This document shows, piece after piece, positions 33,031-34,153 of a stretch of DNA of 64,000 nucleotides. Each line of letters opens with the position of its first letter. Positions within the stretch are counted from its first letter, which is position 1. The translations under genes were made by a program, and so were the position numbers. Below the pieces are notes generated by a model. The model was not told where the DNA came from and did no database searches. It saw only the letters and a program-made list of their open reading frames with translations. The stretch lies in contig OZ287072.1 of NCBI GenBank assembly GCA_965645245.1, forward strand, positions 2,046,001 through 2,110,000. The letters are read 5' to 3'. This stretch comes from Massalongia carnosa (lineage: Eukaryota).

Positions 33031-34153
33031 ATGGGTATCGCCTTTGATCACGCGCCAAAAAGGCCAGAACACATCGATACCATCCTCAACGGCCTTGATC
33101 GGTACAATCCCGAAACCACCAGCGTGTTCCAAGACTACGTTACGCAGCAATGCGAAGACCGTACTTATGACTGCTATGCCAACCTAGCGCTCCTAAAGCT
33201 GTAAGCCTCACGCTTTTTATCTCTCGTGCTTTTACTATCTCATAAAGCAACAAGGCGGGCGAGAATTCCATGATGATCAAGATTTAACGTTTCCTATTAC
33301 CTGACCGAGCACGCTCGAGGCCTTGAATCAGCCCCCCGCAACTCCTGAAGACAGAAAACTATTAGCTCTATCTGAATCCCCCCAATCCCCCGCTTCCCCC
33401 CATCAATCACCCTTAGTCCAAAAACACTAAGCTAACACCAACTCCCACCCCAACTTCCCCCCCAAAACAGCTACCAATTCAATCCCCACCTTACCCGCGA
33501 CGAACCCACCACCAACATCCTCGTCAAGGCCCTCACCGTCTTCCCCTCTCCGGACTTCAGCCTCTGCCTCCATCTCCTCCCCCCACACATCCTCTCCCCC
33601 CAACTGTCCACATCCTCCGCCCTCCCCGCTGCCGGCGACGCCCCCCTCTCTGAAGCCGTGCAGAAGCTCACCACCCTCAACACGCTCCTCGCGCAAGCCG
33701 ACTACAAGGGATTCTGGACCACCCTCGACAGCGACGATCTGTACGCCGACCTCATCGCCGACGTGTCCGGCTTCGAGGAGCTGATGCGCGTGCGGATCGC
33801 CGTCACGGTCGGCCAGAGCTGTCGCGAAGTGAGGAGGGAGGTCATGGAGGGGTGGCTCAGCTTGCATGGCAAGGATTTTGAGCGCTTCGTGTTGGACATT
33901 TGCGGGTGGGACATTGACGATATAGTTCCCGGCGGGAAGGGAGGCGTGGTGGTGGTGCCGGTGAACAAGGAGAACGAGGCCAAGGGCACGGTGGTGAGGG
34001 AGAATGTCCAGTTCGATCGTGAGTTTTTCTTCCCCTTCCTTGCCTTTTATCCCTCATCACAAATTATTCAATCGATGAACAAAAATGCTAACGCCTCGCC
34101 CTTTTCAAGAATTCGCTCGCGTCATCCGCCGCGCTTACGAGCAGCCAGCCTAA
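33031..34153 (+). CDS. eIF3k: Translation initiation factor 3 subunit K, 3 exons
   Basis: [76 protein letters not shown]. Introns 33201-33470 and 34019-34109. Confidence 0.93.
33266..33351 (+). ncRNA. Intronic box C/D snoRNA, predicted guide for 25S rRNA 2'-O-methylation
   Basis: Box C ATGATGA 33270-76, box D' CTGA 33301-04, box D CTGA 33345-48. The 13-nt element ACGTTTCCTATTA (33287-99) pairs with conserved LSU rRNA UAAUAGGGAACGU with one G-U pair. Lies in an unusually long 270-nt intron. Confidence 0.8.

Follow-up and report, generated by a model that had tools for sequence, protein, structure and literature searches.

The first intron of the eIF3k gene of Massalongia carnosa contains sequence motifs typical of box C/D snoRNAs, which raises the question of whether it encodes a guide RNA and, if so, which rRNA nucleotides that RNA would direct to methylation. 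The gene lies at positions 33031–34153 of the window, by which we mean the whole 64,000-nt stretch of contig OZ287072.1 analysed here, in a fungal genome of 52 Mb. It encodes eIF3 subunit K, as its relatives are named; exon 2 matches PF10075 with 107 bits, and the closest named proteins are from lichen-forming Lecanoromycetes (95–96% to those of Pseudocyphellaria, Sticta and Lobaria). A preliminary description had proposed a box C/D RNA of ~80 nt in this intron, with one guide for 25S rRNA and one orphan guide. Box C/D RNAs are released from spliced introns, assemble with Snu13, Nop56, Nop58 and Nop1, and direct methylation at position D+5.

Layout of the predicted snoRNA and its two guides

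The features of the locus are given below; mean column identities are from alignment A2, which holds 37 of the 51 distinct two-guide elements.

33031..33200, + strand: eIF3k exon 1 (coding part), relatives named eIF3 subunit K
33201..33470, + strand: eIF3k intron 1, host of the snoRNA, 270 nt, GT..AG
33266..33377, + strand: predicted mature box C/D snoRNA, ~112 nt, its putative ends a few nt beyond boxes C and D
33270..33276, + strand: box C, ATGATGA, mean column identity 0.94
33287..33299, + strand: D' guide to 25S rRNA, 13 bp with one G-U, own 25S
33300, + strand: unpaired C ahead of box D'
33301..33304, + strand: box D', CTGA, mean column identity 0.95
33305..33344, + strand: D'/C' hairpin region, containing the former 'orphan guide' (33329–33344)
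33319–33321 / 33331–33333, + strand: inner stem GGC / GCC, closing the 9-nt loop 33322–33330
33324..33329, + strand: loop motif TGAATC, candidate extra pairing element for 18S 244–249 or 288–293
33345..33351, + strand: box C', CTGAAGA (the former 'box D'), mean identity 0.74
33360..33370, + strand: D guide to 18S rRNA 159–169, 11 Watson-Crick pairs
33372..33375, + strand: box D, CTGA, 95 nt from the 3' splice site
33431–33436, + strand: branch motif GCTAAC of intron 1
33471..34018, + strand: eIF3k exon 2, PF10075
34019–34109, + strand: eIF3k intron 2, 91 nt
from 34110, + strand: eIF3k exon 3

A box C (RUGAUGA) stands near the 5' end of the element and a box D (CUGA) near its 3' end; the internal boxes D' (CTGA, 33301) and C' (CTGAAGA, 33345) agree with the k-turn pattern and recur across 51 introns, and each guide is an antisense element of the 10–21 nt expected ahead of D or D' that pairs through position +5. 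The preliminary description had the 270-nt intron, box C and the CTGA motifs at 33301 and 33345 in their right places, but it took the second CTGA for box D. That motif is the start of C', and the true box D, at 33372–33375, lies outside the interval described; with it, the RNA is predicted to be ~112 nt long instead of ~80 nt and has no orphan guide. The segment previously considered as such precedes C', not D, and is a variable stretch that includes the 3' arm of a hairpin and the end of its loop. Against the whole rDNA unit its best matches are of 8–9 bp, none adjacent to the CTGA, and only 6 bp of rRNA pairing, which is chance level, are found upstream of the CTGA at 33345.

The real second guide is for 18S rRNA. 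It forms 11 of 11 Watson-Crick pairs with the 18S of the same genome (−12.9 kcal/mol), and D+5 (T33367) pairs with A162, where it would very likely direct the formation of Am. Its letters are identical to those of Nc CD32 and AtSnoR18a, and an 18S guide of this kind had been described in Neurospora CD32, in plant SnoR18 and in human U44. The D' guide, ACGTTTCCTATTA (33287–33299), pairs with TAATAGGGAACGT in the 25S of the same genome (−15.4 kcal/mol), with the single G-U pair and the one-base distance from D' that had been claimed. D'+5 is A33296 and stands opposite the second U of CUAAUAGGG, the base to which the D+5 rule had pointed in the preliminary description. This U, which the snoRNA would probably convert to Um, is 14 nt 3' of the A-loop Um and corresponds to position 2936 in Arabidopsis, 2893 in N. 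crassa and 2935 in yeast, the latter number being derived from Am2947 = yeast Am2946. Yeast U2935 is not known to be methylated.

The 25S guide is the longest among all 457 CTGA sites on both strands of the window, and guides of at least 11 bp occur at only six of these sites, two of them within the snoRNA element. None of 3000 dinucleotide-shuffled versions of the intron combined a box C with a guide of at least 11 bp; 69 had such a guide alone. Both guides pair with the rRNA of the same genome in 4/4 rDNA copies examined per site, and the D guide plus its box occurs once in the genome, as judged from undiverged copies. Contigs from three sequencing runs span the intron in unspliced form, which has no bearing on its expression.

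The rDNA unit itself is of 11.6 kb with insertions (L009–L013, G000:C3:3249001-3292289), and some of its copies in the assembly look truncated. The 18S gene spans ~2330 nt and the 25S site is found 4160 nt from the 5' landmark; this extended span and the distant site suggest that both rRNA genes likely hold introns. A dispersed, slightly altered copy of a 25S rRNA segment lies outside the rDNA array (L006, G000:C4:2571658), and L001, L007 and L008, on different contigs, share an identical 55-nt non-rRNA stretch, a dispersed repeat.

Conservation of the intron, the guides and the D'/C' hairpin

We aligned exon 1 against metagenome contigs and kept the best 80 of 183 relatives, a sample that is biased towards the query. 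An intron is present at the intron-1 position in 76 of the 80 loci, the remaining four being transcripts or intronless genes. Two of these 76 loci stop before box D, with the 25S guide visible in both. Among the 74 introns that reach box D, both guides are found in 59 (50 distinct), the 18S guide only in 11 (9 distinct), the 25S guide alone in one and neither guide in three; the 18S guide plus box D is retained in 70/74. The distance between box D and the 3' splice site is 62–107 nt, with a median of 81.5 over 58 distinct introns. These intron counts are the unbiased measure of conservation, the column identity of the guides in A2 (0.99) being high through selection and not independent evidence. 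Alignment of orthologous introns was one of the checks that the preliminary description had proposed, and it found boxes and 25S guide conserved; together with the boxes and the rRNA pairing, it upholds the claim of a box C/D snoRNA in this intron. From sequence comparison, we conclude that eIF3k intron 1 is a genuine, conserved gene for a predicted two-guide box C/D snoRNA.

By best protein match, the carriers are loci resembling those of what we take to be Lecanoromycetes, Leotiomycetes and Dothideomycetes, plus several distant ones (65–77% identity). As expected, the two-guide pattern was absent from the prokaryote genomes and viral contigs searched. Box D' is CTGA in 43, CCGA in seven and CTGC in one of the 51 distinct two-guide introns, and variants of the guides, ATGTTTCC and ATGTTCCC (2/51 each), retain pairing via G-U or G-C. 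The C' site varies at its first base (CTGAAG, TTGAAG, TTGACG, ATGAAG and others), reads NTGA(A/C/T)G in most orthologues, and retains the G, A and G required for pairing with D'. Spacers and flanks show identities to the window of only 0.21–0.49 (A2), and the 16-mer once regarded as an orphan guide has a mean column identity of 0.27 among 36 orthologues, its flanks being alike (0.28 and 0.36). A model based on A2 gave 65 bits in the window, 55–76 bits in four held-out complete two-guide loci and 17–53 bits in the tested single-guide loci, with no match in three short introns, four intronless loci, L095 and L096.

Eleven of the 74 introns have lost the 25S guide or carry a broken one, and three lack the RNA altogether, which suggests that the snoRNA is dispensable in some lineages. 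Several loci deserve separate mention. L050, L054 and L064 (95–97% to an Aureobasidium eIF3k) have short introns of 86–96 nt and no snoRNA, an absence that we interpret as a recent loss or move; L045 and L052 (99–100% to Aureobasidium eIF3k) retain the snoRNA. The 25S guide of L068, L072 and L076 is intact in its distal 9 nt and broken beside D', as if decaying or re-targeted. L039 (intron 357–545) keeps the 18S A162 guide, and its D' guide pairs over 13 bp with 18S 46–58, like that of Nc CD4 (Cm49), which points to a guide swap.

The D'/C' interval is variable in sequence, yet it folds into a stem. The motif TGAA(T/C)C is present in 42 of the 51 two-guide introns, of which 40 have it inside an enclosed loop; nine two-guide elements are without it. 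MAFFT put the 3' arm of the hairpin in the wrong columns, and base pairs were therefore scored in gap-free windows anchored on the loop. Across 28 distinct windows, pairing at the four closing positions is intact in 98 of 112 cells, and both sides change (for instance, the first pair is C-G in 8 and G-C in 14). This pairing score was equalled in 0 of 2000 shuffles of the 3' arms, in a test that is inflated by the kinship of the sequences, and one-column shifts reduced the score to 59 and 58.

When 18 distinct loops were compared with the rDNA unit, the best two sites were 18S 244 and 288, which lie 80–130 nt downstream of A162. The loop is retained in 7/9 distinct introns without the 25S guide, and 3/49 loops carry UGAACC, a poor fit to 18S 244. 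Pairing of the loop with 25S upstream of the D' target was rejected: it extends over only 5 bp, at rank 59 in the rDNA scan, and fits the three UGAACC variants, but it leaves the persistence of the loop after loss of the 25S guide unexplained. L071 (intron 942–1143) is the sole intron with a 25S guide but no 18S guide, and its UGAAUC loop is also gone; this double loss, a single case, agrees with the loop serving the 18S guide. The UGAAUC loop is thus a candidate extra base-pairing element that would dock on 18S and serve the 18S guide, a reading arrived at post hoc to which we give slightly less than an even chance.

Origin of the guide pair and position of the predicted 25S mark

We are rather confident that the intron encodes a two-guide snoRNA, likely a fungal relative of plant SnoR18 (Z102/R77), that is predicted to methylate 18S A162 and the 25S U located 3' of the A-loop. 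The RNA would be made as part of the eIF3k transcript, freed by splicing and debranching, and trimmed to ~112 nt; Snu13, Nop56, Nop58 and Nop1/fibrillarin would bind it, and Nop1/fibrillarin would methylate the base opposite the fifth nucleotide before D or D'. Comparison of guide registers would place the 25S mark on the U at Arabidopsis 2936. More tentatively, the UGAAUC loop might pair with 18S near A162, and so aid the loading of the D guide.

Plant SnoR18 (AtsnoR18a/b, or At3gCDbox105.1/.2; RF00359 snoZ102_R77, clan CL00060) has the same guide order, with D' directed to the 25S CYAAUAGGG patch and D to 18S A162, and AtSnoR18a/b and the fungal RNA share their final 16 nt, up to box D. Its targets in Arabidopsis, by RiboMeth-seq, are 18S Am162 and 25S Am2935, both methylated at ~0.94–0.97 in the wild type (PMC8053127, PMC8583080); the plant table gives Am2935 without a human or yeast counterpart and Am162 as human Am166, with no yeast site (PMC8583080). 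On the D' side of the plant RNA, two paired G and a single spacer base precede the box, one paired base more than in the fungal guide, and position 5 falls on A2935, 13 nt after Um2922. The fungal guide is one nucleotide closer to the box, and the predicted mark therefore falls on U2936 (Arabidopsis numbering) and not on A2935. The preliminary description had suggested that the site resembles one methylated in plants; such a site exists in Am2935, but this A lies immediately 5' of the predicted U. The fungal RNA also differs from SnoR18 in its longer D'/C' hairpin with the UGAAUC loop and in its location in an eIF3k intron.

We regard shared descent with plant SnoR18 as likely, bearing in mind that the identity of the guides is forced by their target and so is not independent proof of descent. 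The alternative, that independently shuffled guides were assembled in fungi and share their target pair with SnoR18 through convergence, draws on the mobility of guides among fungal snoRNAs, whose separation and recombination have been reported (PMC5824354, PMC2780460). For instance, Neurospora crassa Nc CD32 (snoStrip CD_32), an intronic RNA cloned as cDNA and with a similar C', has the identical D guide and box D (18S Am161) joined to a D' guide that targets 18S Um167, not 25S, and that ends in the same UAUUA as the fungal 25S guide (PMC2780460). Likewise, L039 joins the same D guide to an 18S C49-type guide like that of Nc CD4, the plant and fungal 25S registers are one base apart, and the spacers are not confidently alignable. 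Against convergence, guide order, box positions and the two rRNA patches are all as in plants, and with ~100 methylated sites (111 in Arabidopsis) a chance match would arise in ~1 in 100 by a rough inference, so that we consider it unlikely.

The genome of M. carnosa contains a second, apparently intronic box C/D candidate (L095:1477–1560; G000:C4, ~917000), with ATGATGA, an 11-bp guide to 18S 165–175, a CCGA and a final CTGA without a clear D guide. The predicted target is U168, the site of the Nc CD32 D' guide and of human U45. The two guides of Nc CD32 thus appear to sit here on two separate RNAs, and CD32 seems to have arisen either by the joining of two halves or by the re-targeting of a copy.

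A more extended reading of shared descent is that the two-guide snoRNA predates the plant-fungus split, that it persists at this single intron position across filamentous ascomycetes, that its 25S guide slipped by one nucleotide and yields an unreported Um next to the A-loop where plants have Am, and that the RNA acquired a hairpin loop which docks on 18S and so assists the D guide from the other arm. We advance this ancient double-guide reading tentatively, as a possibility that is rather more apt to fail than to hold. If it were true, the lineages without either guide, the loop or the whole RNA would be natural tests of it.

The same RNA might also set the 25S mark on a neighbouring base or on two bases, either through extension of the box to CCUGA, which would make D'+6, the A 3' of the U, the target, or through a non-canonical register that restores the plant A. 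Few yeast guides (9%) have a C before D', and in yeast constructs such a C, as the final guide nucleotide, can displace the methylated position by one base (PMC5389607). That C occurs in 51/51 two-guide introns, the search pattern having included it, and the exact 25S base is uncertain because of the shift that it can cause. Nevertheless, the shift is described mainly for D' boxes without their 5' C (PMC5389607), D' is CTGA or CCGA in 50/51 introns, C' has the partner G, and the plant-like register, with a guide for A2935, was found in 0/77 fungal introns. We judge a mark on a neighbouring base, or on two bases, improbable.

It is still less probable that the 25S guide is mainly a folding chaperone, opening the peptidyl-transferase region in 60S assembly with little or no methylation. 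The long 13-bp duplex adjoining the A-loop would suit such a role, and we found no report of Um at the predicted base in the literature searched, which lies mostly outside subscription journals, nor is Um2893 in the accessible part of the N. crassa snoRNA table (PMC2780460). However, the guide keeps a fixed distance to its D' and C' boxes, which are canonical, and its plant counterpart methylates (PMC8053127, PMC8583080). Finally, an 80-nt RNA ending at 33351 with an orphan D guide for a non-rRNA target can be set aside with near certainty: a CTGA does exist at 33345, but one between D' and the D guide is kept in only 27/51 two-guide introns, the preceding segment varies (0.27) and is in part hairpin-paired, and an invariant guide with its CTGA lies 27 nt downstream.

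Comparison with known snoRNAs

A search of Rfam, also proposed in the preliminary description, gave no match in the window at the gathering cut-off, and below it there were only Afu_300 (19.5 bits) and SNORD44 (12.5 bits), with none to snoZ102_R77. Aspergillus fumigatus Afu_300 (RF01509), the top match in the window by E-value, was discarded, since it matches via box layout and its guides differ. The D guide for 18S A162 is that of SnoR18, with RF00359 scores below the gathering threshold: snoZ102_R77 aligns end to end with orthologue L061 (30.6 bits, E 0.49; cut-off 40 bits), the sole RF00359 match among 20 loci. Elsewhere in the genome, RF00359 had a single match, at chance level (23.8 bits, E 7.7) and unmatched by model R1.

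The accessible parts of the snoRNA tables of A. fumigatus (PMC2377427) and T. rubrum (PMC3890542) hold no RNA with these targets, and we found no report of a fungal eIF3k-intron snoRNA in the literature searched, mostly outside subscription journals; there, the guide sequences appeared only as human U44, within miRNA papers. A fungal survey traced the CD_32 family only in Sordariales (PMC5824354; main text, the supplements may list more). The snoRNA thus fills a gap in the fungal catalogue, as an RNA missed by Rfam whose relative CD_32 was traced only in that order, and it predicts a specific ribose methylation adjoining the peptidyl-transferase A-loop, next to a plant site for which the accessible Arabidopsis tables give no yeast or human counterpart. 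It opens no new mechanism and no non-rRNA target. It would be a case of modification-site evolution, in which a one-base slip of the guide separates plants from fungi and D' guides are swapped on a constant D half: the 25S type here, the Um167 type in Neurospora and the C49 type in L039.

Besides SnoR18, three known systems bear comparison. Nc CD32 shares the D guide for 18S Am161; its Um167 position on D' is taken here by a guide that pairs with 25S. Vertebrate SNORD44/U44 (RF00287, clan CL00060) directs its D guide to the same adenosine of 18S (human Am166), but the match is limited to the 3' 15–26 nt, with 12.5–20.7 bits (12.5 in the window and 20.7 in the best orthologue, below the gathering score), and it has no such 25S guide. 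Yeast snoRNAs of the snR70 type likewise have a conserved D'/C' loop motif complementary to rRNA; theirs pairs beside the D' target (PMC3116282), whereas the best matches of the candidate fungal loop are in 18S, the target of the D guide. In all, the predicted snoRNA is, by its guides and boxes, a variant of the SnoR18/SNORD44/CD32 group and of a familiar kind.
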